In this document: positions 6,942-27,839 of the stretch, one piece after another
Numbering within the stretch: the first letter of the stretch is position 1
How the letters are laid out: every line of letters begins with the position of its first letter
Virus record (IMG/VR): IMGVR_UViG_3300044506_000022
Coordinates: 1-59,159 of that record
DNA: 59,159 nt
Reading direction: 5' to 3' (one strand)
Source: a virus
Lineage: Duplodnaviria > Caudoviricetes
Program-made: the position numbers and the translations under genes
The notes under the pieces: generated by a model
The model's input: only the letters and a program-made list of their open reading frames with translations
The model's database searches: none
Told to the model about the DNA's origin: nothing

Positions 6942-7220
6942 TTAAACCTCACAGATTGCATTTAGCGCTTCTGGATTCAACACTTCTATGTGTGTTCCTT
7001 TCATTCCGAGTGACTTCGAACGAATGATACCTACAAGAGCTAATTTACTGATTGTGGCTGTAACAACAGTTCTAGAAATTTCTTGTCCTTCGATTAGATC
7101 CGCAGCAACGAATACTCTTGATTTTTGGCCATCTAACGCTTCAGATAAAATCTTTGTTACCTCTAATTCCGTATGAGATAATTGTTTAATCACCGTACTT
7201 GTATTTGTCATTAATTCCAT
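6942..7220 (-). CDS. Stand-alone CodY C-terminal winged-HTH domain (no GAF domain)
   Basis: LSHTELE...SRTVV.ATISKL...GIIRSKSLGMKGTHIEVLN matches the CodY wHTH (LSYSELE...[34 protein letters not shown]). Confidence 0.9.
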   Translation of the reverse strand: MELMTNTSTVIKQLSHTELEVTKILSEALDGQKSRVFVAADLIEGQEISRTVVTATISKLALVGIIRSKSLGMKGTHIEVLNPEALNAICEV

Positions 7221-7232
7221 TTCAATCGCTCC

Positions 7233-7637
7233 TTATTTTGAATTGTATTTATTCCACTCTTTAAGATCTGTTTCGCTTATCGTTTTGTCTATGATGAAGG
7301 CTCTTTCTATGTCCGTTGCATCCATGAAATACGCTTTTCCGAACCTGTTTTCGAATGCTTGTTGCCATACTTCCATTCGTTTAGGATCTGCATGAAGTTT
7401 CTTATGACAGTCGTTGCAAACTGGAAGACAGTTAGTGAATACTCCTCTAGCTCCTTGGGAACGAAGCTTTACATGATGCATATGTAGTTCTCTTTGTTGT
7501 ACTCCACATTCTTGACAGGTATTGTTGTAATGCTTTTTGGCCTTTTCTCGAACAGCTGCAGGGAATTTATTTCTTTCACCTGCCTTTGCTACTCTCCTTT
7601 TATGATTAGGTTTTGGAACAGCTGGCATCATGCCCAC
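7233..7637 (-). CDS. HNH endonuclease
   Basis: CQECG...HHVK.RSQG...NCLPVCNDCH..H. Confidence 0.85.
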   Translation of the reverse strand: MGMMPAVPKPNHKRRVAKAGERNKFPAAVREKAKKHYNNTCQECGVQQRELHMHHVKLRSQGARGVFTNCLPVCNDCHKKLHADPKRMEVWQQAFENRFGKAYFMDATDIERAFIIDKTISETDLKEWNKYNSK

Positions 7638-8194
7638 CTTTTAACGATGCTGCGTAATTCCAGATTCTCTTCTTCTACCTCATTAAGTTTTTCATTCAGT
7701 TTAATATTTTTAACTACTAACTCCATTGCTTCTTTAGTAACCTCTTCACGATTTTTCACTTCTTCATTTACACGTTCACGCTCATTTACTACACATCTTT
7801 TCTCCAACTTGAGTAATACTTCTAATGAATTGATACGTTCCTCTAATTCTTTCTTTTCTTCTACCAAGTTATGATTCTCAAAAAGAACCTCATTTAATTT
7901 CATATTTGCTTCTTGTAATTCTGCTAGAGTGATAGTTGGTTCAGTTGATTTTTCTGATTCCCCAGTTTTGCCTTTAGCCATTTTCTTCTCCCCTTTTTGG
8001 ATTTTGTATGGCGGTACGATTAAATCTCCTAATTGCCTAATTTCTATATACACATTACACTTTTCGCAATATTCCGACCTTAATTTGTGTGGTTTTAGAG
8101 TCATTCCCTTTTGATATTGGCAATGTATACAGTGTTTTTCGATTGTGTCATGTATTTTTATCCGAACCGCTCTCTTCCGTTTCCGTTCATCCAC
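7628..8194 (-). CDS. Zinc-finger plus coiled-coil protein
   Basis: CIHC...CEKC N-terminus, heptad-rich C-terminus. Confidence 0.65.
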   Translation of the reverse strand: MDERKRKRAVRIKIHDTIEKHCIHCQYQKGMTLKPHKLRSEYCEKCNVYIEIRQLGDLIVPPYKIQKGEKKMAKGKTGESEKSTEPTITLAELQEANMKLNEVLFENHNLVEEKKELEERINSLEVLLKLEKRCVVNERERVNEEVKNREEVTKEAMELVVKNIKLNEKLNEVEEENLELRSIVKRWA

Positions 8195-8205
8195 CTAATT
8201 ACCTC

Positions 8206-9477
8206 CTAAGCAGTAACTATGTTTCTCTTAAACTTAGATTCTTCTACACACATTTCTGGAAGATTAGCTCTTACAAGTGCATCTGCAAATGGTGGTGGAA
8301 CTGCATTTCCACATCTAGCTATTTGTTTTGATTTTGGATACATTTTTCCGTTGTAATCACGATCTATAATGTAATTCGGAGGGAATCCTTGACCTACGAA
8401 TAATTCTTCTGGTTGTAGCATCCTTAAACCAATATCTATTATTTTGTAATTTTGGCTCTTTACGGTAACTAAACCAAACCTATCCTTAGTTGTAATGGTG
8501 TGTAACGGTTCATCAACACTTTGTCCAAATCCTTGACCATAGTATTTAGTTAGAAATGCTGTTACTAAAGCAAACCTATTTCCTCCTGCAGTTATCGTAT
8601 GAAGAGGTGAATCAAGCGATAGTCCTCTAACTTCATTAGAAGATGTTTCAGTATAATAACTGGTTAAAAACGCTGCTTTTTCTTGTCCAGGGATAATAAA
8701 AGGCGTTGGATTATTTATGACGAACTTTTCAATCCCTTTATTGATTCTTCTGAGCGTGTTAGGTGATAGATCCTTTTTACGATTAAATATAGAAGGTGTT
8801 TCTATGCTCCAATCAATTATTTCGCTCGATGTTTTCCAAGGAAGTAACTTGCCTGCTTGAACTTCTAAGCTGTTAGGATCTCCATGCGTAGGTTTTGGCC
8901 ACACAATCTGTCTACCGTCACAACGAGCAACCATGAAAAATCTTTTTCTTATCGTCGGAGCCCCATAATCACATGCTCGTAACTCTTTGAATTGAACTTC
9001 ATATCCAAGTGATTCTAATGCTTTAACGAATGATTGAAACGTTTTTCCTTTTTGATTATCATCTGGATACCCATCTTCCGTTAATGGTCCCCATGTTTTA
9101 AATTCCTCAACATTCTCAAGCATGATTACTCTTGGCTTAACAGCAATTGCCCATTTAACAGCTATCCAAGCAAGACCTCTTATTTTCTTTTCAACAGGCT
9201 TTCCACCTTTTGCTTTACTAAAATGTTTACAGTCTGGGCTGAACCAAGCTAAACCGACTTTTCTCCCCTTAACTGCTTTAACAGGATCTACATCCCAAAC
9301 TGATTCACAATAATGTTCTGTATCCGGGTGATTTACTTTGTGCATAGCGATGGCATCAGGATCATGATTAATTGCAATATCTACTGATAGCCCAGTTGCC
9401 ATTTCTATACCAGTTGAAGCTCCGCCACCGCCCGCGAAATTATCTACTATGATTTCTCTGAATAGGTCTAGCTGCAT
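8206..9477 (-). CDS. DNA (cytosine-5)-methyltransferase, orphan
   Basis: FAGGGG (I), SPDC (IV), ENV (VI), R.RFF (VIII), GNAVP (X); no cognate REase nearby. Confidence 0.93.
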   Translation of the reverse strand: MQLDLFREIIVDNFAGGGGASTGIEMATGLSVDIAINHDPDAIAMHKVNHPDTEHYCESVWDVDPVKAVKGRKVGLAWFSPDCKHFSKAKGGKPVEKKIRGLAWIAVKWAIAVKPRVIMLENVEEFKTWGPLTEDGYPDDNQKGKTFQSFVKALESLGYEVQFKELRACDYGAPTIRKRFFMVARCDGRQIVWPKPTHGDPNSLEVQAGKLLPWKTSSEIIDWSIETPSIFNRKKDLSPNTLRRINKGIEKFVINNPTPFIIPGQEKAAFLTSYYTETSSNEVRGLSLDSPLHTITAGGNRFALVTAFLTKYYGQGFGQSVDEPLHTITTKDRFGLVTVKSQNYKIIDIGLRMLQPEELFVGQGFPPNYIIDRDYNGKMYPKSKQIARCGNAVPPPFADALVRANLPEMCVEESKFKRNIVTA

Positions 9478-9558: not shown

Positions 9559-10392
9559 TTAAGATTGATTTTCTTCCAGATACTTTTTCAATCTACCCTT
9601 AGCGATTTCTCGTCGGAAAGAAGTCGCTTTGTTCTCAACTGTTAAACTTGTTTCAACTAAACGATCATATGAACGAGGCCCAATCTGATTTGACAATTCC
9701 AATGGTTTAAGATTAGAAGTATAAAAGATTGGTAGTCCTTTTCGATAACGACCATCAATGATATTGAACATAACTTCTTGCACCCAATCACTTAATTTCT
9801 CGGCTCCTATATCATCAAGAACGAGTAAGTCACATTCTAACAATGCTTTCATAATCTGTTGTTCTGATTCTTTATTATCTTTATTGAATGTACCCTTTAT
9901 CCGTCTCAATAACTCTGGTACACTTTGGAAAACAACTGAATATCCTTTGCTTTCTAAAGCATTAGTTACAGCTGCAGCAAGATGTGACTTTCCGTTTCCG
10001 TATGTTCCCCAAATCAATAAGCAATCTTGTTTCCAGTTTGGATATTCTTCGATGTACTTTTTAGTAGCATTAAACGCTTGTTCTGAGCCTTCTCTCACGT
10101 TGTAAGTATGTAATGTTGACTCTGCGAACTTTTCTCCTAAACTACTAATAGAAAATAACTTTTTAATTTCCATTCGTTGATGATGTGTTTCAGCTTGTCT
10201 AATACGCTCTCTTTCTATTTCATTAACGCATTTACAAACTGGCTGCACCCAATTATCAATATTTAAAAGAGGAATTTCTACTTTCATTTTAGGAATGAAT
10301 GTACCGCAATGCTCACAAGTCTTTCCTTCTTGGTTTTCATCACAAGCCGATGTATTCATCAGTTGGGTAATTGTACTTGTCAGCCCCTCCAT
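9559..10392 (-). CDS. DnaC/IstB-like helicase loader ATPase
   Basis: N-terminal CEHC..CKC, Walker A GTYGNGKS, Walker B LLVLDDIG, TSN, DRL. Confidence 0.92.
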   Translation of the reverse strand: MEGLTSTITQLMNTSACDENQEGKTCEHCGTFIPKMKVEIPLLNIDNWVQPVCKCVNEIERERIRQAETHHQRMEIKKLFSISSLGEKFAESTLHTYNVREGSEQAFNATKKYIEEYPNWKQDCLLIWGTYGNGKSHLAAAVTNALESKGYSVVFQSVPELLRRIKGTFNKDNKESEQQIMKALLECDLLVLDDIGAEKLSDWVQEVMFNIIDGRYRKGLPIFYTSNLKPLELSNQIGPRSYDRLVETSLTVENKATSFRREIAKGRLKKYLEENQS

Positions 10393-11047
10393 TTCGATTC
10401 CCACCTTTTTTAGTTATTTCATGACCTTCTAAATAACACTCATTGTTTAGAAATGTACTAGCATGTTTAATGAATTTAACTTCTGTACCTTCATGCTTGA
10501 TTAATGCTGCATATCGTTTTGTACCGTTTACGATCTCTTCTAAACTATGTTTCTTTAATGCTCGTAGAAATGATGTACTAGCTTTCTTCTTATCTACTTT
10601 TCTTGGGTACTCTGACCAGAATGATTCAAATTGCGAATGTAAATGAGCATTATCTTTTTTTGTATTGGTAATTGTATTGTTAATAACTGTATTATTATCC
10701 TCGGTGTTTTCGCCTATAGGGGTGTAGTTGTTTTCACCTATACCCTCTAGTTGTTTTCGCCTATACCCTCTAGTTGTGATAATGCGTTTTTCAACTTGTT
10801 TTGTACCTTCTTTATAAATTAAGCTCACTTCTGCATATCCTTTATGTGATAAGCTCGATATGATTTTAGAAACACGATCCTTGCTTATATTAAAGAACTT
10901 TGCGAAATGTTCATTCGTTGCAAAGCATTCGTTACTTTGGGATAAACTATCTATTTCAGCTAATAAGAATTTTTCTGTCCACCCTAAATCATCAGATAAC
11001 CAAATCTCTTTAGGAATCCAAATACCTTTAAACGACCGTTCCATCAA
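10340..11047 (-). CDS. Phage replication initiator protein
   Basis: N-terminal wHTH, C-terminal FESFWSEYPRKVDK...HASTFLN domain; internal iterons; precedes the helicase loader. Confidence 0.88.
   Translation of the reverse strand: MMERSFKGIWIPKEIWLSDDLGWTEKFLLAEIDSLSQSNECFATNEHFAKFFNISKDRVSKIISSLSHKGYAEVSLIYKEGTKQVEKRIITTRGYRRKQLEGIGENNYTPIGENTEDNNTVINNTITNTKKDNAHLHSQFESFWSEYPRKVDKKKASTSFLRALKKHSLEEIVNGTKRYAALIKHEGTEVKFIKHASTFLNNECYLEGHEITKKGGNRNGGADKYNYPTDEYIGL
10650..10777. repeat. Putative origin: iterons plus AT-rich tract inside the initiator gene
   Basis: tgttttcRcctata at 10705, 10729, 10752; cctataccctctagttgt at 10737 and 10760; AT-rich 10650-10700. Confidence 0.75.
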
Positions 11048-11069: not shown

Positions 11070-11549
11070 TCAATCAATTCTTTTTAATAAGTATTTTCCT
11101 GCGTGCTTATTTACTCCACTTAAAATTTGACTAATTCTGCTTTTACTAAACCCTAATCTATTCGCTGCTTCAGATTGAGAATTAAAAATAAATACTTCTC
11201 CTGTATCTAAATTATTAGCTATGATTGGTTTTTTAGGTGTACCACCTTTTGTTCGTGCTTTTAAATTTATTGTCAGAGGTACTAATTCGAGATTTTCATA
11301 ACTATTGTCCGTTTTTATTTCGTTTATGTGATTTACAGTCATCCCTATGCATTTATTTCCCCAACGCTTTACTGCGAAAATTTGATGTTGATATACTGTT
11401 TTTCCTTTTAACCTGGCACTAGGATAACCACTACCAGCAAAAGAATTTTTTACATTTCTATTTAAAATAACTCCATTTTCTAAATCAATATCTAACAAGT
11501 GAAGACGTTCGTTAATGTAGGTAAAAGTACTTTCACTCATTCCGCTCAT
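11070..11549 (-). CDS. HNH homing endonuclease with NUMOD1-like domain
   Basis: HQI...VNHINEIKTDN..ENLE and F.SQSEAANRLG motifs. Confidence 0.85.
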   Translation of the reverse strand: MSGMSESTFTYINERLHLLDIDLENGVILNRNVKNSFAGSGYPSARLKGKTVYQHQIFAVKRWGNKCIGMTVNHINEIKTDNSYENLELVPLTINLKARTKGGTPKKPIIANNLDTGEVFIFNSQSEAANRLGFSKSRISQILSGVNKHAGKYLLKRID

Positions 11550-11797
11550 TTATTTACCTCAACTTTGCGCATTTTTGTTTTGTATATAGTATTTTCGCTA
11601 ACTTCACCGAATCGGTTGTATGCTCGTTTATCGGTTTGTTTAAGGCCTTTTTCTTTGTAAGTCCATATTTTATGTAAAGTGCTCTCTGGTTGAATTGGAC
11701 AAATGCACTCATATCCTCGTTTTTCTAAGTCCTGAACTGCTCTGACTAGCTCAATCTTACTTTTTCGTTGGACTGGAAATTCAAACAAATTCATCAC
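11546..11797 (-). CDS. Hypothetical phage protein
   Basis: ORF with aggtga RBS. Confidence 0.65.
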   Translation of the reverse strand: MMNLFEFPVQRKSKIELVRAVQDLEKRGYECICPIQPESTLHKIWTYKEKGLKQTDKRAYNRFGEVSENTIYKTKMRKVEVNK

Positions 11798-11874
11798 CTG
11801 CTTGTCCGATATAGGTTTTGAAAAGGAGCTCCGATTATGGAGCTAGTGTCGTATAATGACCGAACTGCGACACA

Positions 11875-12165
11875 TTATGTTTCTTGGAAATATCCAATTT
11901 CTTTATAAATCTCGTATATCTCATTGAAATTTTTAGCGTTTAAAAGTAACTCAATTTCATCTGTACCAATAAAATATTTAACTGGTTCAACATCTTGAAA
12001 ATTTCTTTTATAACCATGTAGTATTACACTTCCGTCTTTGCAACCCTCAGTATCAGTCATAGTTAAATTACCATCTATACCGATTAAAGCTCTTATTACA
12101 TCTACTCGTTTTGTTTTATTTTCATGAGCAATTCTGTTTTGTAGATTTTCTCTCATATTAACCAT
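11875..12165 (-). CDS. Hypothetical protein
   Basis: ORF. Confidence 0.65.
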   Translation of the reverse strand: MVNMRENLQNRIAHENKTKRVDVIRALIGIDGNLTMTDTEGCKDGSVILHGYKRNFQDVEPVKYFIGTDEIELLLNAKNFNEIYEIYKEIGYFQET

Positions 12166-12215
12166 TCCTCTCTGTTACTTCATTTATCAGTGTTCCATTA
12201 CCGTAATGTGTCACA

Positions 12216-20965: not shown

Positions 20966-22435
20966 CTATTTGTTATCAAATGTATATTCAAAGTTAACTT
21001 CGCCATCATGATGTACAGTTAGTTTTTTAATCAAGGTTTTAAACACTCGGTAAAGATCGTTATCTTTCTTCTCCAATTCCTCGAACGCTTTCTTTACTGT
21101 CTCAATTTGTATTTGAGTAAATTTTGTTGTATTTAATGAAGAAATCTGTTTTTCTAATTCAATTTTTTTTAATTCAAAATCATTTTTTCTCTTTTGAAAT
21201 TCTTCTTTACTGATAAGTTGGTCTAAATATAAATCAACTAATGATTCTTTTTTAGTTTGTATTTGCTCTAATTGTCTCTTTGATGATTCTAATTGTTTTA
21301 CACCTTTTTGCTCTAACTTGTTTTCAATATTAAAATTGATTTCTTTTCCTTCTAATAATAATTGATTAATTACAAGTTCTCTGAAATCCTCGTATCTTAT
21401 AGGTATATGGTTTTCACAAAGATGTACTCCGCCCCTTCTGTAAGCACTACACTTCATATATCTCCATTCTGTTTTGGTGCCATCTTCTTTCTTCCTCCAG
21501 GAAGCTGTCGTAATCATATTACATCCACACTTCCCACAAACAGCAATGCCACCTCTAAACTCATTAACTAGTGACCATTTTGTACGTTTAGGAATTTCTT
21601 TTCCATTCGCTTCTTCCCAAACCTCAATAGGTACAATTGCACGATGTTGATTCTCGAATATTCTCCATTTTTCAGGAGGGTTTTGAATTTGCTTTTTCCG
21701 ACCACCGAATTTAACTTTTGTATATCTACCGAGAATAACAGTACCTTTATAGATAGGATTTTTAATCATGGTGTTAACTGAAACATATTGCCATTTACCA
21801 CCAGAACGAGTTGTGTAACCTTCTTCATTTAGACGATTAGATATATTTTTAAGTCCGATTCCATTTGTATACCAATCAAAAATCATTCTGACAATAGGTG
21901 CTTCTTTTTCATCTGGAACTAATTTTTTATATTCGTCTACTCTATATCCAAACGGAGCTTTAGATCCTCGATGTTCACCTCTTCGCACTTTTGCAGCAAT
22001 AGCACTAGAAATGGATACTGATAAAGTTTTTGGATATTGAGCTGCAAACATTGCGAACATCTCAAATTTCATATCATTCTTACCTTCGTATAAAGAGTCG
22101 TAACCTTCCTCGATTGTTACAAGGCGAACTCCATGAGCTATAAATACCTCTTTTATTTCTAATGCGTCTTTCAAGTCCCTCGCTAAACGATGAATTGACT
22201 TGAATACAACTAAATCTATAAGTTTTTTCTTTGCTTTTGATAATAATACTTGCATAGCCTCACGTTCTAAAAACGCTGTACCAGTTATTGCCTCATCATA
22301 ATGGACTGTACTATCGTCCCACTCATAACCATTACGTTCTAGCCAAAGTCGGCAAATGTCAACTTGGTTTTCTACTGATGTCACTTGTTCATCTTTTTCA
22401 GTTGATACACGTACATAAACTGCATAGTTAGACAT
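20966..22435 (-). CDS. Large serine recombinase (integrase)
   Basis: YVRVST catalytic Ser, RLARD, recombinase domain (PFGY, NPIYKG), Zn ribbon CGKCG...C..C, coiled coil. Confidence 0.95.
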   Translation of the reverse strand: MSNYAVYVRVSTEKDEQVTSVENQVDICRLWLERNGYEWDDSTVHYDEAITGTAFLEREAMQVLLSKAKKKLIDLVVFKSIHRLARDLKDALEIKEVFIAHGVRLVTIEEGYDSLYEGKNDMKFEMFAMFAAQYPKTLSVSISSAIAAKVRRGEHRGSKAPFGYRVDEYKKLVPDEKEAPIVRMIFDWYTNGIGLKNISNRLNEEGYTTRSGGKWQYVSVNTMIKNPIYKGTVILGRYTKVKFGGRKKQIQNPPEKWRIFENQHRAIVPIEVWEEANGKEIPKRTKWSLVNEFRGGIAVCGKCGCNMITTASWRKKEDGTKTEWRYMKCSAYRRGGVHLCENHIPIRYEDFRELVINQLLLEGKEINFNIENKLEQKGVKQLESSKRQLEQIQTKKESLVDLYLDQLISKEEFQKRKNDFELKKIELEKQISSLNTTKFTQIQIETVKKAFEELEKKDNDLYRVFKTLIKKLTVHHDGEVNFEYTFDNK

Positions 22436-22489: not shown

Positions 22490-22519
22490 AAAAAAGAGAT
22501 AGGCTATATTTACCTATCC
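22490..22519 (-). terminator. Terminator ending the ParM/ATPase operon
   Basis: gatagg-N9-cctatc with a minus-strand T-tract. Confidence 0.55.
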
Positions 22520-22528
22520 CACAGAGAA

Positions 22529-22765
22529 TTATTTAATTAGAGTTAACTCTCCACATCTTTCTAAAATTTCTACATCATCCAATTTACTTACATTGACTTT
22601 CACATGACCACTCTTAGTTTTTAAAACTGTATACCCATTAATAAATCTAACAAAACGACCTTCAATTGTTTCTAGATCACCAAAGTTAGTTAATGTCATT
22701 TTTAGCAAATCGCCTTTTTGTGGTTTTAAGTTGATAAGAGTTAAATACTTTGTTCTAATATCCAT
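22529..22765 (-). CDS. YolD-like (SH3/WYL-like) small protein, paralog B
   Basis: GDLLKMT...GRFVRF...VLKT...LDDVEILER, paralogous to the next ORF. Confidence 0.55.
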   Translation of the reverse strand: MDIRTKYLTLINLKPQKGDLLKMTLTNFGDLETIEGRFVRFINGYTVLKTKSGHVKVNVSKLDDVEILERCGELTLIK

Positions 22766-22779
22766 AATAGACCTCCTAA

Positions 22780-23058
22780 TTAAATAAAATTGTTTATTCT
22801 TTCTAAAATAAGCACATCATCTATACAAATAATGTCTATCTTTAGTTTTTCCTCTTGTGTTTTCAAAACGAGTTTACCTGGAATGAATTTTACAAAAAAA
22901 CCTATAACTGTTTTGGTATTTAATCCATTGTAATTTGAGTAAGTTACTTCCAACATATCTCCTTGTTTTAACTCTAAGTTAATTATCCGTATATAGGTGT
23001 TTCGTATAAAATCTACATTGAAATTGTGAGGAGGTTTATTTTTATACCACATTAGCAC
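22780..23058 (-). CDS. YolD-like (SH3/WYL-like) small protein, paralog A
   Basis: GDMLEVTY...GFFVKF...VLKT...IDDVLILER. Confidence 0.55.
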   Translation of the reverse strand: MLMWYKNKPPHNFNVDFIRNTYIRIINLELKQGDMLEVTYSNYNGLNTKTVIGFFVKFIPGKLVLKTQEEKLKIDIICIDDVLILERINNFI

Positions 23059-25195
23059 CCTCCTTGCTTGGTGGAGCTGACATATATGCCATAAAAGGAA
23101 CTGTGCTTTCGCCTCCAGTTCGCAAAATATTGATTGCGTGCCATCGTTTTAGTTTCATACACTCTTCTAAAGTAAAAGGTGCTACTTCTTCTAAAAAGGC
23201 TTTCCATGTATCTTTTGAAGTCGGATACAGATGATAATGAGGTAACGCATTTTTAATAGATAATCTAGCTTGCCTTGGCAACTGCTCCCAGTAATGAAAT
23301 AACCAAGTGAAGCTGACTCTCCATTTTCTGCTCTCTACTGCCATACTCTCCCATAACTTTGCACTTCTATTAAATTGATGTGGTTCGTCAACGATCACAA
23401 AGAATGGATGTTGGTGTTCTTCTTTTCGCATTTGCATAGCCAAATTAATTTTCGTCATTAATAAGTTTCCGATTAGATTAATTTGCTTTGGTGTTAATCC
23501 ATCCAGTTTGCTAACATCAAATACGAAAGCTTTCTTTTGACTGAGGATTTCAACAAAATCAAGTTCATTATTACTCGTAAAACAATCCATAAGGAACGGA
23601 TCGCCCATAATCATATCTAATCGATTGTAGATCGGCTTGATTAGTTTCATTCTCATTTTGTCGCTTTCTTCTTGATACTGAATGAGTGTATTTTTATGAA
23701 TACCATCTGGTAAGCTATCAATGGCTGATTGTAAATACTCTTCATCTTCCATAATACTAAATAATTCACTCATTTTAGTTGTCTTCATACCGATAACAAA
23801 GGATCTCAAATATCTCTCAGTTTGCACGTTATCTTCAAGGCTATCTTCAAAGAATGAAAGAACTGTATCAGCTAATAATCCTTTTCCGTATTGGTTATAT
23901 TTTGCTTCACACCAATCAAAGCTAGGTTTCATTTTTGAAATATTAATGATTTCATATTCTTCTGGTTTTAATACCTTTGAGATTAATTCAGATACTTCTT
24001 TTTTGGCCGGATCAATCAGTAACGCTCCAAACCCATTTTTTACTGCTTGAACTAACTTGTTTGCTCCATATCCTTTTGTTTTACCTTGCCCCATCCCTCC
24101 AATTGCGCAATAAGGTAAGCATAGTTCATCATGGTTTTTAATTGGCATATAAATATTTGTTTCTTGCCCTTTATAAAGGTTCGTGCCTAGAAGCATACCG
24201 TCTTTGGTTAAGAATTTAGGTATGATTGTTTGTGATATTTCGATTCTTTCAATTCCGTATTTTTCTTGTAATGTAGATCCTGGTAATAAACATAACCTTG
24301 ATACTTCATAACTGCTCATGTAATTTGAATTATTAAATCTTGATTTTCTTCTTATCATATTTTCATAGTTTTTTGTATTACGATTTACACTTTCAAGTTT
24401 GTTATCTCCATCAAAAGAATTAAAAGCTGTTTCTAACGCTCTCATTAATGTTTCAGTACGTTTTTCTTTGCAATCTACACATAAGTTTATATTCACGTTA
24501 AAACCTGTATATTTTGCTTTTTGAAGGGTTTCTGGACGCAATTGACCATCTTTTAATAACATTGCTCTTTCACTAGCAAATAGATCGTATTTTTCAGGTT
24601 CAAATCCCATTAATTCAGTAAAGGTATTATGAGCTCCTAAAATTATACTGGCTACTCCTTTTATCGCTAAATTACCGAGATCCTTCTTATTGAATCGAAT
24701 TTTATAAGGTAATTCCCCTTTTTTAAATCCTTCATATCCTTCTTGTACACCAACAGACCAATCGTAATGCAAAGGTATTGCTAATATTTGAACTAAACAT
24801 TTTTCATTCTCTTTCATTAAGTTTAGTGTTTCTAGTAAATAGACTAACCAATCAGTACGTCTATCAGCTTTTAACGAGAGGAAATAATGATTTTTGTACT
24901 GCATACTTTTAATTGCTGTAGGTTTAAAGTTTTTTAGTGGATCATCACCTTCTTTCAGTGTGATATTTGGAAAAGTGGAAAGTAGAGATTTTTCGGATAG
25001 ATCTGCCATTCCGTTATTTGTTGTAAGATAAAAGGAAGGATTAGGTTTTTGTAAGAGTATTTCGTATGAGAAGAAGTTGTTTTCTTTATCTTTGTATCGT
25101 TGGTATGGTGTTTTGTATTGGTTGAGTGCTTGAGTAAGGTGTTCAACTTTATCATTACTCAGCTTACTATCTGGAATAAGCTGAAAGTGTTTCAT
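23042..25195 (-). CDS. FtsK/HerA-superfamily (TraD/VirD4/VirB4-like) ATPase
   Basis: Walker A GGMGQGKT, LIDPAK, Walker B FVIVDEPHQF, ESRKWR...HYWEQL. Confidence 0.8.
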   Translation of the reverse strand: MKHFQLIPDSKLSNDKVEHLTQALNQYKTPYQRYKDKENNFFSYEILLQKPNPSFYLTTNNGMADLSEKSLLSTFPNITLKEGDDPLKNFKPTAIKSMQYKNHYFLSLKADRRTDWLVYLLETLNLMKENEKCLVQILAIPLHYDWSVGVQEGYEGFKKGELPYKIRFNKKDLGNLAIKGVASIILGAHNTFTELMGFEPEKYDLFASERAMLLKDGQLRPETLQKAKYTGFNVNINLCVDCKEKRTETLMRALETAFNSFDGDNKLESVNRNTKNYENMIRRKSRFNNSNYMSSYEVSRLCLLPGSTLQEKYGIERIEISQTIIPKFLTKDGMLLGTNLYKGQETNIYMPIKNHDELCLPYCAIGGMGQGKTKGYGANKLVQAVKNGFGALLIDPAKKEVSELISKVLKPEEYEIINISKMKPSFDWCEAKYNQYGKGLLADTVLSFFEDSLEDNVQTERYLRSFVIGMKTTKMSELFSIMEDEEYLQSAIDSLPDGIHKNTLIQYQEESDKMRMKLIKPIYNRLDMIMGDPFLMDCFTSNNELDFVEILSQKKAFVFDVSKLDGLTPKQINLIGNLLMTKINLAMQMRKEEHQHPFFVIVDEPHQFNRSAKLWESMAVESRKWRVSFTWLFHYWEQLPRQARLSIKNALPHYHLYPTSKDTWKAFLEEVAPFTLEECMKLKRWHAINILRTGGESTVPFMAYMSAPPSKEGANVV

Positions 25196-25197
25196 AA

Positions 25198-25617
25198 TTA
25201 AACCCCCTTAATTGCTCTCCCAACTTCCATTAAGATGCTCATTAGTCCAGGTGCAAATTGTAAGCCGACAAATCCGATACATGCCCATCTAATTAGATTT
25301 AATCCTTTGTGTTTTTGGCCCATCATAATTAAAACACAGCCTGCGCTAATTGATAGAAAACAAACAGGATATGCAATTCCTGCTATGAACTCAAATAACG
25401 GATCAAAGGCATGTGCAACTTTATCTTGTATTGCTCCATTAACCGGAACACTTTGGCTTGTTGTTGCAGAAACAATTCGATTAACTATTAAATTTAAAGA
25501 AGTTCCTAACGAAAGACTTCCACCTATTAATGGTAAATAATAATTATTTTTCTCTTTAGGTTGTTTCCAGGAATCGTCCATAAAGGCTTTAAATTTTATA
25601 TACTCAATCTTTGCCAT
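25198..25617 (-). CDS. Membrane protein with TrbC/VirB2 pilin-like C-terminal hairpin
   Basis: FDPLFEFIAGIAYPVC...LIMMG...GLNLIRWACIGFVGLQFAP. Confidence 0.6.
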   Translation of the reverse strand: MAKIEYIKFKAFMDDSWKQPKEKNNYYLPLIGGSLSLGTSLNLIVNRIVSATTSQSVPVNGAIQDKVAHAFDPLFEFIAGIAYPVCFLSISAGCVLIMMGQKHKGLNLIRWACIGFVGLQFAPGLMSILMEVGRAIKGV

Positions 25618-25628
25618 CATTCTCCCTC

Positions 25629-25910
25629 CTAGACTAATGAAAATAAAATGTAAGATGTAGCACCAATACCGATACATTTTAATGCTGTTTTAGGCATTCC
25701 AATACATATAAGAATGAATCCAACAGCAATAATAATTAAACTGACCTTCATTCCCATTACCACCATAGGAGCAGCTTTAACAATTGCATAAGTTGTTCCG
25801 TGCTTAGTCGCTTGATGTAGAAAATTATCGCCAATAAAATGGCCGACTTTATCAGCAGCCCAAAATATTCCATCATGTATTCCTTTTTGAATCTTACTAA
25901 TTATTTCCAC
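25629..25910 (-). CDS. Small membrane protein
   Basis: Two C-terminal hydrophobic segments; aaaggag RBS, GTG start. Confidence 0.65.
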   Translation of the reverse strand: MEIISKIQKGIHDGIFWAADKVGHFIGDNFLHQATKHGTTYAIVKAAPMVVMGMKVSLIIIAVGFILICIGMPKTALKCIGIGATSYILFSLV

Positions 25911-25957
25911 GGTTTTCTCTCTCCTTTCTGTTTAAACTAAAATAAAGGAGTGATACT

Positions 25958-26053
25958 ATGTCAGCAATTATCACAAAATTAGGTTGGGGTATGGTGATTG
26001 GTGGATCTGCGGTTGCTGTTTTAAAAGCGATAGGGGATTTTTTAGGATATTAA
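25958..26053 (+). CDS. 31-aa hydrophobic peptide, counter-oriented, absent from ORF track
   Basis: aaaggagtgatactATG; MSAIITKLGWGMVIGGSAVAVLKAIGDFLGY. Confidence 0.55.
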   Translation: MSAIITKLGWGMVIGGSAVAVLKAIGDFLGY

Positions 26054-26277
26054 ATAAGTTGATTTGCAAAATCCTCATCGCCATCATCTTGTGGAGTATT
26101 TACAATAGAAGACTGATTAATGAATGGATGTGATGAAATTGGTGTCACATCTTTTTGAATTAATGATTTGATATACCTAGAAAAGTTTTTTCTATTTAGT
26201 GCATGATCATAAAGTTTCTTTTCGTCTGGATCGCTGATATTAAAACAAACATTTTTACGTTTAAATTCATTTGCCAT
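26050..26277 (-). CDS. ParR-like RHH DNA-binding/adaptor protein
   Basis: KNVCFN.SDPDE..LYDHA...NFSRYIKSLIQKD plus disordered acidic tail; coupled to the ParM-like gene. Confidence 0.7.
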   Translation of the reverse strand: MANEFKRKNVCFNISDPDEKKLYDHALNRKNFSRYIKSLIQKDVTPISSHPFINQSSIVNTPQDDGDEDFANQLI

Positions 26278-27118
26278 AGACTCTCTTCCCTACTTCGTAG
26301 AATCCTGCAGCATTAGCAAATATTGGTGGAAGCTCAATTAATTGCCCTCTAACATTTACAATTGGTTTTATTAATTGAGCTCTTGGGAAATATTCTGTTA
26401 AATATGGTATAACTTTTTCAGCTGCACCTCCTATAACATAAACTTCATCATCTTTTCTCCATTTGGTTAAAGCATTAACTGCAATTTTTCTTGCTAAATC
26501 TACTGGATTTGTTGGTGAAATATCTTCATTACCATCTGAAAAACCTCCGTAAATAGTCCAAGAATTTAAGTCCGAAAACTTCTTATTATTCATTGAAGCT
26601 AAGTTTACAGTTCCACTTCCAATATCAATCATTCTTAATTGACCATGTTTCATAATATTGAAAAATGCACTTGCTCCCTCTGCAGCCACTTCACATTTAT
26701 GAATAATAAAAGTTTTTTCTAACCCATTTACTGTTATTGAGTGTTCCCCTTCTAGCATGTTGCGTATAATTTTTTTTTCAGATTCAACGTGCTTAGAAAT
26801 TGGTTGACCTACAATTATCTTTAAGTTTTTTTGGTCCGTGTATTGGTGTATGGCTATCAGAACTCGGATTAGTGTGTCAGAATTAGCTTTTGTGTCGCCT
26901 CTGATATTACCACCTGATTCACTTTCTAATGCTAAACTTCCAGCAAATCCTCTTTTCCCTTTATAAGCAAATTCAATATCGCATTCTCCTAGTCGATCAG
27001 TAAGTTTACGCTCTCTATATTCCCCAATTGCTGAAAGGAATTTTAGAACCCCAATAGGCCCAACAGCTTTAACTTCATTACCTCCTCCATCAATACCAAT
27101 TACCATATAATCTCCCAT
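26267..27118 (-). CDS. ParM/StbA-family actin-like ATPase
   Basis: GIDGGGNEVK, GQP, AEG, IDIGSGTVN, IGGAA, FANAAGFY actin-fold motifs. Confidence 0.9.
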   Translation of the reverse strand: MGDYMVIGIDGGGNEVKAVGPIGVLKFLSAIGEYRERKLTDRLGECDIEFAYKGKRGFAGSLALESESGGNIRGDTKANSDTLIRVLIAIHQYTDQKNLKIIVGQPISKHVESEKKIIRNMLEGEHSITVNGLEKTFIIHKCEVAAEGASAFFNIMKHGQLRMIDIGSGTVNLASMNNKKFSDLNSWTIYGGFSDGNEDISPTNPVDLARKIAVNALTKWRKDDEVYVIGGAAEKVIPYLTEYFPRAQLIKPIVNVRGQLIELPPIFANAAGFYEVGKRVYGK

Positions 27119-27300
27119 ACTCTCACCCTTTCGTGTGATGTAGGTGAGAGGTAAACGAGTATGAAGTTTGTTTAGGTGTGAAGTACCTCCCACTTAATAA
27201 AGCATACTATCTATTTCTTGAAAAATTGCGTGTACTAGAAAAAAATTTCTTTAGAGGAAATAGGAAGGTGATTATCGAAAGTTATTTCAGAGGTGGAAAA

Positions 27301-27501
27301 ATGAATTTAAAAAATCGTATAAAGATTATTTGTGCCGAAAAAGAAATACAATTATCAACTATTGCAGATCATCTGGAAATTAGTTATTCGAAGTTTAGTA
27401 AAATGGTAAATGGTAAACAGGTAATAACAGTTAAGGAAGGATTAATAATAACGAGGTTTTTAGATAAACCATTTGAAGAGGTATTTTACTTAGAGGAATA
27501 A
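27301..27501 (+). CDS. XRE/Cro-like HTH regulator divergent from the ParM operon
   Basis: LKNRIKIICAEK...SKMVNGK...FEEVF; gaggtgg RBS. Confidence 0.85.
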   Translation: MNLKNRIKIICAEKEIQLSTIADHLEISYSKFSKMVNGKQVITVKEGLIITRFLDKPFEEVFYLEE

Positions 27502-27512
27502 AAATAGACTCA

Positions 27513-27839
27513 TCAAGTAATGAGTCTTGTTAAATACTGTAAATTATCTGCTTCACGTTTGATACGATGATAAACAACTTTCTTAGAATCAATTTCCTTT
27601 TCTAGTTCTAATATACCTTTTTTTAGTTCGTTAGTTTCTGAATGCATTGCAGCTTCTCGTAATCTTTCACTTTTTTCATTCTTTGCGCCAGCAAGTAAAA
27701 GTTTGTTTTCTAAAGAGGTTAGTTTAAAATTAGCAGTCTTTAATTTATGTACTGAATCATAATAATCTTTTTCAACTTTTTCTAATTCCAATGGAATCTT
27801 TTTTAGTCTCTCAAGAAGGTAGTCTCTCATTAATTCCAC
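27513..27839 (-). CDS. Coiled-coil hypothetical protein
   Basis: ORF with aaggag RBS; AKNEK..REAA. Confidence 0.65.
   Translation of the reverse strand: MELMRDYLLERLKKIPLELEKVEKDYYDSVHKLKTANFKLTSLENKLLLAGAKNEKSERLREAAMHSETNELKKGILELEKEIDSKKVVYHRIKREADNLQYLTRLIT

Follow-up and report, generated by a model that had tools for sequence, protein, structure and literature searches.

In the SPP1 re-annotation (PMC6316719), gp31.1 and gp31.2 are described as membrane proteins and gp32 as a non-essential protein of 836 amino acids (aa) whose C-terminus resembles TrwB, VirB4 and FtsK. A possible 'trans-membrane translocon' is mentioned there, together with synteny with phage GBK2, whose protein GBK2_32 is 75% identical to gp32. 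In two papers on Tyroviruses and phage Kirov (PMC9703825, PMC10454425), a plasmid-like region is made up of ParM, a ribbon-helix-helix (RHH) protein, a 'type IV secretion system protein', a replication-relaxation protein and a Xer recombinase, and a plasmid-prophage phase is suggested. For Novomoskovsk/Bolokhovo, a paper (PMC9658697) reads TrbC/VirB2, Replic_Relax, an FtsK/SpoIIIE-family protein and an RHH protein as plasmid-prophage relics. A literature search for a functional study of these genes yielded descriptive accounts only (supplements lay outside the search). Here we analyze a related operon of a Caudoviricetes virus, IMG/VR record IMGVR_UViG_3300044506_000022 (59,159 bp, the whole of which is called the window below). 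Its seven minus-strand open reading frames (ORFs), all present and intact, follow one another in the order ParM, RHH protein, 93-aa membrane protein, pilin-like protein, ATPase, and the small paralogues Y1 and Y2, and are closed by a terminator-like hairpin. We show that the ATPase has, by its predicted fold, the architecture of VirB4. This VirB4-type N-domain, the family-level support for a VirB2-like partner, the RHH tail classes that track ParM and the association of the ATPase with SpoIVA are new in this work. The original prediction left open whether such a system was undescribed; as far as the published texts cited above go, the module is in print for SPP1, the Tyroviruses and Novomoskovsk/Bolokhovo.

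In SPP1 and GBK2, as in the window, a large soluble ATPase follows small membrane proteins and lies upstream of recombination and replication genes. The window ATPase aligns with GBK2_32 over 99% of its length (24% identity, E 1e-28), and profiles seeded with the pilin-like and RHH proteins of the window match genes upstream of the ATPase in GBK2. The SPP1 type differs in having no ParM and in having a second, different small membrane protein; moreover, SPP1 is lytic, whereas the window phage carries a serine integrase. Judged from sequence and gene order, the window module is the same as the early-gene module gp31.1/gp31.2/gp32 of SPP1, a match that names the module and does not explain it.

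The Tyroviruses (Thrax gp11-gp19; Kirov, PJN02) resemble the window in another way: ParM, an RHH protein ('ParG-like'), small proteins, a TrwB/T4SS-like ATPase (T4SS, type IV secretion system) and a recombinase are encoded on one strand and in the same order. Added to their string are genes for an M23 peptidase, found in Kirov with E 1.7e-17, and for Replic_Relax, found in PJN02 with E 5.1e-11; its ATPase exceeds 900 aa and its recombinase is of the tyrosine type. None of these features is present in the window, which has two private small paralogues and a serine recombinase. By its predicted gene content, the Tyrovirus-type set is nearer to a transfer apparatus than that of the window. In the two Tyrovirus-type loci L092 (Kirov, 7171-7866) and L097 (PJN02, 8005-8367 and 11358-12185), M23 peptidase or endopeptidase genes are seen, and Replic_Relax comes right after the ATPase and is followed by the Xer recombinase.

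Comparisons can also be drawn with cellular and plasmid systems. The ParMRC systems, examples of which are those of plasmid R1 and, in Bacillus plasmids, AlfA/AlfB and Alp7A, share with the window an actin-like ATPase gene followed by an overlapping small RHH gene with a ParM-binding-type tail; unlike them, the window pair is joined to a T4SS-like block in one operon and no iterated parC was found. The VirB2-VirB3-VirB4 core of T4SSs (TrwL/TrwM/TrwK in R388) likewise combines a two-domain VirB4 with a VirB2/TrbC-type gene directly upstream, but the window module comes from a tailed phage, has no Pfam VirB4 match, and no VirB3, VirB6, VirD4, relaxase or wall hydrolase was recognized in the phage. 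FtsK, SpoIIIE and Streptomyces TraB belong, as the window ATPase does, to the additional-strand-catalytic-glutamate (ASCE) P-loop superfamily, and share with it the proposal that one ATPase moves DNA at a septum; the window ATPase differs in lacking a membrane domain, and no gamma/winged helix-turn-helix DNA-recognition domain was seen in it. The Ced system of Crenarchaea (CedA, CedA1, CedA2, CedB) is presented in two papers as a conjugation-derived, relaxase-less DNA importer with a VirB2-like pilin and a VirB4-like ATPase (PMC9905601, PMC11868833). By analogy, Ced is a precedent for a reduced, relaxase-less VirB2/VirB4 set; it differs in being a cellular importer of chromosomal DNA with a polytopic CedA channel protein, and the window has neither a CedA-type protein nor sequence-level membership in that system.

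The relationship of the ATPase to VirB4 was addressed by structure prediction. The protein consists of an N-domain (residues ~1-317) and an ATPase domain (~318-714) with Walker A at residues 366-373 and Walker B at 599-606, and hydropathy reveals no hydrophobic (transmembrane) segment. The Walker A/B ATPase announced by the original prediction is borne out, as GxxGxGKT, DEPH and several Arg, Lys and Gln residues further downstream do not vary among 44 relatives whose identity goes down to 34%. A model of the full protein built from these 44 relatives had a mean predicted local distance difference test score (pLDDT) of 88.6. When compared with known structures, the C-domain (318-714) matched VirB4 4ag5_A (Z 27.6, root-mean-square deviation (rmsd) 3.4, 336 residues), followed by TrwB (Z 26.7), DndH-C (26.6), HerA (25.6) and DotL (24.9), while the FtsK motor (Z 16.7 over 217 residues) and EccC (Z 16.8) scored far lower. 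The N-domain (1-320), modelled alone (pLDDT 85.7), matched residues 39-424 of TrwK/VirB4 of R388 (7o42_A) with Z 14.6 (rmsd 3.3, 224 residues), the next-best match among the 48,161 representative chains aligned having Z 7.5; with Foldseek (E 1.2e-4), eight of the ten best matches were TrwK chains. As the N-domain matches TrwK/VirB4 far above the rest, the modelled protein has the two-domain architecture of VirB4 and not that of a coupling protein, HerA or FtsK, and the earlier proposal of a TraD/VirD4- or FtsK-type membrane pump gives way to it. An identity as HerA or TrwB was rejected on account of the VirB4-type N-domain, and one as an FtsK/SpoIIIE translocase on account of the missing membrane domain and of the FtsK score, which is well below that of VirB4. 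Sequence models do not include the protein: a search against PDB sequences gave no match at E<=10, and NCBIfam gave no weighty match (CedD, E 0.018, far below its cut-off). The ATPase is thus VirB4-like by its modelled fold, and not a member of the family by sequence models.

The gene directly upstream encodes the pilin-like protein, which contains a conserved cytoplasmic N-terminal peptide, a signal-like segment, a conserved 'FDP' motif and a two-helix hairpin, and whose hydropathy profile peaks over residues 75-100 and 113-131, a weaker segment lying at ~30-55. This layout fits the VirB2/TrbC pilins. Its own score against Pfam T4SS_pilin (22.6 bits) is below the cut-off of 26.6; in the family of cognate proteins (n=44), however, 22 match T4SS_pilin and 13 match TrbC/VirB2 at E<=0.01, and the family thereby lends support to the VirB2-like label given earlier. 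A prediction of the complex of ATPase and pilin-like protein (alignments A1 and A4) scored 0.00 and, having been run without controls, is used neither for nor against an interaction. The 93-aa protein, predicted earlier as a 2-TM protein, does contain a strong hydrophobic segment. Homologues were found only in the relatives of the window with ~75% identity (L008/L009/L024, L060-62), and no family was found for it with Pfam, the structure Atlas being uninformative. A VirB3 identity, considered for this protein and for the second small membrane protein of SPP1-type loci, could not be assigned, with no Pfam match and nothing informative from the Atlas.

Both members of the putative partition pair could be recognized. 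ParM matches Pfam ALP_N (E 1.5e-15, 58.1 bits vs a cut-off of 26.3) and phrog_691, 'partition protein' (E 4.9e-44). The last 11 nt of parM are shared with the RHH gene, relatives of which are labelled ParG-like or CopG/Arc in other phages. A search of PDB with the RHH profile returned only a designed protein (E 0.069), so that the RHH fold rests on the family pattern and on the labels of other annotators. All RHH proteins share an N-terminal core (alignment A5), while their C-terminal tails form classes. An acidic stretch with a hydrophobic last residue is present in 25 of the 26 unique RHH proteins encoded directly after ParM, none of which has a GG motif. Among those not next to ParM (n=34), 15 carry a GG[IV][KR][FIV]-type tail and three an acidic-hydrophobic one, and others have related IKVEV (IKVEVGNK) or PFxPSK endings. 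GG[IV][KR][FIV]-type, IKVEVGNK or PFxPSK tails occur in the RHH genes of the ParM-less loci L001-L003, L012, L016, L029, L036-L040, L052, L079 and L081. The different tails of the ParM-less proteins suggest a different docking partner, which may be the ATPase. Four loci (L014, L015, which is phage D6E, L054 and L068) contain two tandem RHH genes between ParM and the pilin-like gene, one for a protein with a ParM-type tail and the other for a protein with a PFxPSK-type tail. The sole RHH protein of the window has the acidic-hydrophobic tail of the ParM type, which would fit the ParM-binding peptide of a ParR-type adaptor. In our reading, the core module owns an RHH protein; ParM-linked forms would either gain a ParR besides it or, like the window, have one ParM-tailed RHH protein only. 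The possibility that the RHH protein is exclusively a ParR was rejected, since the same family heads ParM-less modules.

Two close relatives of the window illustrate how the pair behaves. Their ATPases are 74-75% identical to that of the window. In L009, ParM and the RHH protein are 83 and 71% identical to those of the window; in L024, the corresponding values are 38 and 40%, and the RHH tail differs. Hence, ParM and the RHH protein travel together and are exchanged independently of the block formed by the 93-aa, pilin-like and ATPase genes.

To describe the distribution of the module, the ATPase was searched with tblastn and found in 130 phage records (Bacillus, 120; Geobacillus, 5; deep-sea phage D6E, 2; Lysinibacillus, 2; Brevibacillus, 1). 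It is located in the early region of TP-84, 031MP004, BpsM-61, Sam46, SP-10 and GBK2, with one or two small membrane-protein genes just upstream and recombination/replication genes downstream. In addition, the ORFs of 52 IMG/VR and 30 GTDB loci were searched by iterated profiles seeded with the window proteins. From 92 sources of the ATPase, 63 with a full-length gene and at least 3.2 kb upstream were retained (29 were dropped), corresponding to 49 lineages at 90% identity. The pilin-like gene is present in 46 of these lineages, the RHH gene in 34, ParM in 15 (13 of 47 when L092 and L097, both fetched through their ParM, are left aside) and a serine recombinase in nine. The conserved core is RHH, pilin-like protein and ATPase, and ParM with its RHH protein is a facultative, swappable cassette. 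The co-occurrence expected from the original prediction thus holds for the core and not for ParM, and the proposal of ParM/ParR as part of one machine has to be changed to that of an exchangeable, non-obligate add-on. When ParM and the ATPase occur together, ParM is upstream, on the same strand and in the order ParM-RHH-pilin-ATPase, the sole exception seen being Basilisk, in which a ParM-RHH pair lies 1.3 kb downstream of the ATPase. On the ATPase tree (48 rows; L089 was omitted as too distant), the distribution of ParM needs at least eight changes, seven of them forced by well-supported branches. Homologues of ParM were found in 55 phage records, seven of which were examined; in D6E, Kirov and PJN02 the ATPase lies 1-3 kb downstream of ParM.

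The ratio of nonsynonymous to synonymous substitution rates (dN/dS), which is a rough estimate as dS is saturated, was 0.08 for the ATPase, 0.10-0.13 for the 93-aa protein and 0.16-0.21 for the pilin-like protein. A search of 1.84 billion representatives at E<=1e-30 puts the ATPase family at 433 clusters (50% identity). It follows from the selection ratios and the number of clusters that these genes are not decaying remnants. In the sample of 401 genomes described below, a few copies of the ATPase, examples being G076:C111 and G178:C15, are interrupted by in-frame stops or incomplete, so that some prophage copies are degraded; most are intact.

Restriction to phages of spore-formers, put forward with the original prediction as a point to be checked, is supported as a correlation. 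SpoIVA, which marks endospore formers, was used as a proxy for endospore formation. In an even sample of 401 genomes from the class of one carrier (carrier included), the ATPase was found in 23 at E<=1e-10 and SpoIVA in 272. SpoIVA is present in every one of the 23 ATPase-positive genomes, and the ATPase is absent from all 129 genomes that lack SpoIVA (one-sided Fisher p ~1e-4, a value that ignores phylogeny and the boundaries of phage host range and gene pools; p 0.001 when restricted to the 17 carriers judged strong by E-value). In a second class sample, the ATPase was found in four of 399 genomes (centre included) at E<=1e-25; these four carriers and one Sulfobacillus genome, for which the carriers alone were counted, are all SpoIVA-positive. 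The 30 GTDB loci come from Bacillus, Gottfriedia, Ectobacillus, Brevibacillus, Anoxybacillus, Clostridium (metagenome-assembled genomes, MAGs), Salinibacillus, Sediminibacillus, Fictibacillus, Ornithinibacillus, Oceanobacillus, Paenibacillus, Tumebacillus, Alicyclobacillus, Gorillibacterium and Sulfobacillus, that is, from endospore-forming genera, except for three short contigs of one MAG. The correlation of the ATPase with endospore formation is real in these samples, uncorrected for phylogeny. The three exceptional contigs (L065, L081, L083), which carry the module at 40-50% identity, belong to an 'Elusimicrobiaceae' MAG; a binning error or a swept-in phage contig is more likely than a true host outside the Bacillota.

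The features of the operon and of its immediate surroundings are collected in Table 1. All the ORFs of the proposed operon and their order stand; instead of being a single tightly coupled unit, it is formed by two tight blocks, ParM-RHH and the 93-aa-pilin-ATPase-Y1-Y2 genes, separated by a spacer of 139 bp in which neither a terminator nor a significant RNA fold (z -0.49) was found. Three starts were revised. That of ParM is most likely at 27118, from its ribosome-binding site (RBS), the length of its homologues (276-285 aa) and the alignment with L009; that of the pilin-like gene is probably at 25620, its relatives beginning at an internal Met; and that of the divergent helix-turn-helix (HTH) gene, the mechanical ORF of which begins at 27178, is inferred from an RBS to be an ATG at ~27301. 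In agreement with the predicted terminator, a terminator-like hairpin was found after the last gene (22520..22496), and a second terminator-like hairpin (27527..27506) closes the coiled-coil gene upstream of the operon. Because this hairpin ends the upstream gene, the promoter of the operon must fall in the 180 bp common to the divergent HTH gene. This region contains the parM leader (76 nt), which is near-invariant, at ~65 of 76 positions, when compared with L009:5960-6075, apart from an 11-nt insertion in the window; unlike the leader, synonymous sites of the genes are saturated between the window and L009. A short motif of the CACCTA type recurs in the leader, and 8 nt of the leader are complementary to the RBS of parM. 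It is the best candidate for the binding site of the RHH protein (ParR), as operator or centromere, and the RBS complementarity means that it may act as operator, centromere or translational control element.

Table 1. Coordinates of the operon, its regulatory region and the adjacent recombinase in the window.
Feature	Coordinates	Strand	Matches and remarks
Large serine recombinase (integrase)	20966..22435	-	Resolvase + Recombinase + Zn_ribbon_recom domains; phrog_95 E 2.5e-115
Intrinsic-terminator-like hairpin and T run, closing the operon	22496..22520	-	9-bp stem, 4 GC pairs, 7 T in tail
Y2, small soluble protein, 78 aa	22529..22765	-	paralogue of Y1
Y1, small soluble protein, 90-92 aa	22780..23058	-	paralogue of Y2
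VirB4-like ATPase, 717 aa	23042..25195	-	phrog_5156 E 5.7e-184
VirB2/TrbC-like pilin-type membrane protein, 140 aa	25198..25620	-	T4SS_pilin below cut-off; phrog_5422 E 1.4e-31; alignment A4
Small membrane protein, 93 aa	25629..25910	-	hydropathy peak 2.62 at residues 50-68
RHH-type DNA-binding adaptor with ParR-type C-terminal tail, 75 aa	26050..26277	-	phrog_8966 E 1.2e-12; alignment A5
ParM/Alp-family actin-like ATPase, 283 aa	26267..27118	-	ALP_N; phrog_691
Divergent promoter and leader region	27119..27300	.	holds leader 27134..27209 (-)
Divergent small HTH (XRE-like) gene, ~67 aa	27301..27501	+	weak HTH_26, E 0.0039 (below cut-off); PHROG repressor families

Y1 and Y2 are paralogues by BLASTP (42% identity, E 8e-18) and, among the loci surveyed, were found in the window phage only. 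Their earlier designation as YolD-like finds no support in sequence: neither matches Pfam, YolD (PF08863) included, at E<=1. In the Atlas they fall in with small SH3-like barrels, and YolD clusters come up below the threshold only (feature score 0.86; TM-score 0.65-0.67). The 59,159-bp record has direct terminal repeats and an estimated completeness of 100%, and carries almost all its genes on the minus strand. Directly downstream of the operon, as a neighbour and outside it, is the gene of the large serine recombinase; this integrase and the divergent regulator, the latter recognized from its weak HTH match, agree with what had been predicted. Beyond the recombinase, on the lower-coordinate side, are repressor-type HTH genes and genes for an anti-repressor, an SbcC-like protein, RecT, a DnaD-like initiator and a DnaC-like loader. 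Tail and head genes occupy the higher-coordinate (upstream) side of the operon, and this gene content, with the recombinase and repressors, identifies a temperate tailed phage. A 23-nt unit is repeated 3.1 times (86% matches) at 10705-10777, within the DnaD-like initiator gene (10340-11047); an origin-iteron array is a plausible interpretation. Adjoining the divergent HTH gene upstream is a gene with its own terminator for a predicted coiled-coil protein of 108 aa (27513-27839, minus strand), for which no family match was obtained. Near-identical DNA was found only in soil-metagenome contig sets (n=3). The operon has its nearest relatives in contigs from genomes of Bacillus sp. and Gottfriedia acidiceleris (ATPase identity 75-76%), and a megablast of the 5.2-kb operon region against phages gave nothing useful.

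In T4SSs, VirB4 is located at the cytoplasmic face of the membrane, where it is held by small membrane partners and energizes the handling of the VirB2 pilin. The reading that we prefer, and that we put forward tentatively, is a plasmid-like handling of the phage genome at the membrane by two cassettes joined in one transcription unit. The first cassette is an actin partition pair of the ParM/ParR type, in which the RHH protein would bind phage DNA, probably at the parM leader, and its C-terminal tail would couple the bound DNA to ParM filaments. The second is a relaxase-less remnant of a conjugation-type apparatus, an ancestry for which the M23 and Replic_Relax genes of the Tyrovirus-type string speak, with a VirB2/TrbC-like membrane protein, joined in the window by the additional 93-aa membrane protein, and a soluble VirB4-type ATPase; this cassette is widespread in phages of endospore-forming Bacillota, and the ParM-less phages have their own RHH protein of the same family. 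From the analogy with VirB4 and VirB2 we infer that the pilin-like protein or proteins dock the ATPase to the membrane at its cytoplasmic face, and that the ATPase would spend ATP on remodelling them or on assembling them into a platform or conduit in the membrane. The RHH protein would tie this device to phage DNA and ParM, where present, would bring the DNA to the cell poles. The outcome would be the positioning, anchoring or transfer of the phage genome at the membrane, rather than classical conjugation.

A number of observations weigh against this reading. Gene 32 is non-essential in SPP1, according to the re-annotation (PMC6316719). As the Z scores of the C-domain are nearly tied, this domain alone cannot choose between VirB4, VirD4 and HerA, and HerA-type ATPases are also found in anti-phage defence, as PDB titles indicate. 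When the 44 ATPases were searched against Pfam, neither VirB4 nor another family matched at E<=0.01, except for two chance matches. No TrbL/VirB6 was found in the 59-kb record and the small membrane proteins match no VirB3 model (VirB8 was not searched). A parC-type iteron array was not found either, a repeat search of 25.9-28.1 kb and Tandem Repeats Finder on the whole window returning short two-copy matches only. Since the sole RHH protein of the window has a ParM-type tail, the link between DNA and ATPase is, for this phage, a conjecture. Lastly, ParM is absent from about two thirds of the ATPase lineages, and in Lietuvens, Flasso and PVJ1 the stretch examined has ParM and the RHH protein but no ATPase; that the genes are adjacent could therefore come from the sharing of a 'plasmid-like' slot and not from a joint function.

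Several of these points would be accommodated if two unrelated neighbours were considered, ParM/ParR partitioning an episomal phage and the pilin-like protein and ATPase serving superinfection exclusion or anti-phage/anti-plasmid defence, expressed early or from the prophage. We regard this as unlikely, though far from negligible. The C-domain fold is equally near the defence ATPases HerA and DndH (Z 19-26.6), and PADLOC defence models gave weak matches to the ATPase (mad8, E 0.0077; HerA, E 0.0094) and none to the six remaining proteins. As is typical of an accessory slot, the operon has a regulator and a terminator to itself and sits between the integrase and the tail/lysis region; ParM/RHH swaps independently of the ATPase block and also occurs alone, and the dispensability reported for gene 32 of SPP1 fits as well. 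No defence family reaches significance, however, the N-domain is specifically VirB4-like instead of a HerA HAS-barrel, and its partner is VirB2-like. Furthermore, one RHH family is common to ParM-linked and ParM-less modules, the linkage with ParM recurs in at least seven events with constant order, and the Replic_Relax and M23 proteins of related loci fit DNA transfer better. That the genes are decaying leftovers of a conjugative plasmid, captured by the phage and without present function, is very improbable. The set of T4SS genes is incomplete, and published notes read such genes as plasmid-derived. A six-frame search of the 59-kb record found no Relaxase (PF03432), Replic_Relax (PF13814) or TraG-D_C (PF12696), other relaxase families not being searched; together with the failure to find TrbL, this agrees with the earlier statement that a relaxase and other T4SS genes are missing, and VirD4 and VirB6 are not found either. 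The ORFs are nevertheless intact, the catalytic residues are invariant in the 44 sequences down to 34% identity, and dN/dS, at 0.08-0.2, is well below 1, so no decay is seen in the 93-aa, pilin-like and ATPase genes, those for which it was measured. Pilin-like protein and ATPase are, besides, kept together in 46 of the 49 lineages, lytic SPP1 included.

A more specific form of the DNA-at-membrane reading is delivery into spores, put forward with the original prediction as a filament-plus-pump machine, in which ParM would push RHH-bound DNA to the pole and the ATPase, with a pilin-like channel, would pump it across the sporulation septum or into the sister cell, so that spores would carry the phage. 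It gains from the distribution data, and we consider it improbable. All 23 carriers of the ATPase in the first class sample are SpoIVA-positive, when SpoIVA is present in 272 of 401 genomes overall, and so are the five further carriers. The 130 phage records are all from Bacillus, Geobacillus, Lysinibacillus or Brevibacillus phages or from deep-sea phage D6E, the GTDB loci are in endospore-forming genera apart from the one MAG, and the linkage with ParM recurs. Against it, the SpoIVA correlation takes account of neither phylogeny nor the boundaries of phage gene pools, the ATPase has no transmembrane domain and no FtsK/SpoIIIE features, and ParM is missing from most lineages. VirB4-type ATPases, moreover, are not known to pump DNA.

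Conjugation and type IV secretion have VirB4 as their signature ATPase. What this analysis brings forward is a VirB2/VirB4 pair that, stripped of the other parts of a T4SS, is under selection in hundreds of phage lineages. Being dispensable in the laboratory in lytic SPP1 and having so far been found in endospore-forming hosts only, it points to a function that plaque assays miss. Candidate functions are the carriage of phage genomes in spores, plasmid-like inheritance, passage from cell to cell and exclusion of rivals; with phage and host as tractable as SPP1 and Bacillus subtilis, the question can be put to a direct test. Which partner is engaged by the DNA adaptor can be approached through the RHH tail classes. 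Annotators could replace 'MsbA', 'AAA-like' or 'hypothetical' by the more precise terms VirB4-like ATPase, VirB2-like membrane protein and ParR-type RHH protein. It may also be, although we hold it to be improbable, that the VirB2/VirB4 device with its RHH protein, and with ParM in a third of the lineages, moves or tethers the phage's double-stranded DNA genome at the polar or sporulation septum. If this were true, the phage would be captured in the forespore or passed to the sister cell without lysis, and phages would own a DNA transfer route distinct from both injection and conjugation.

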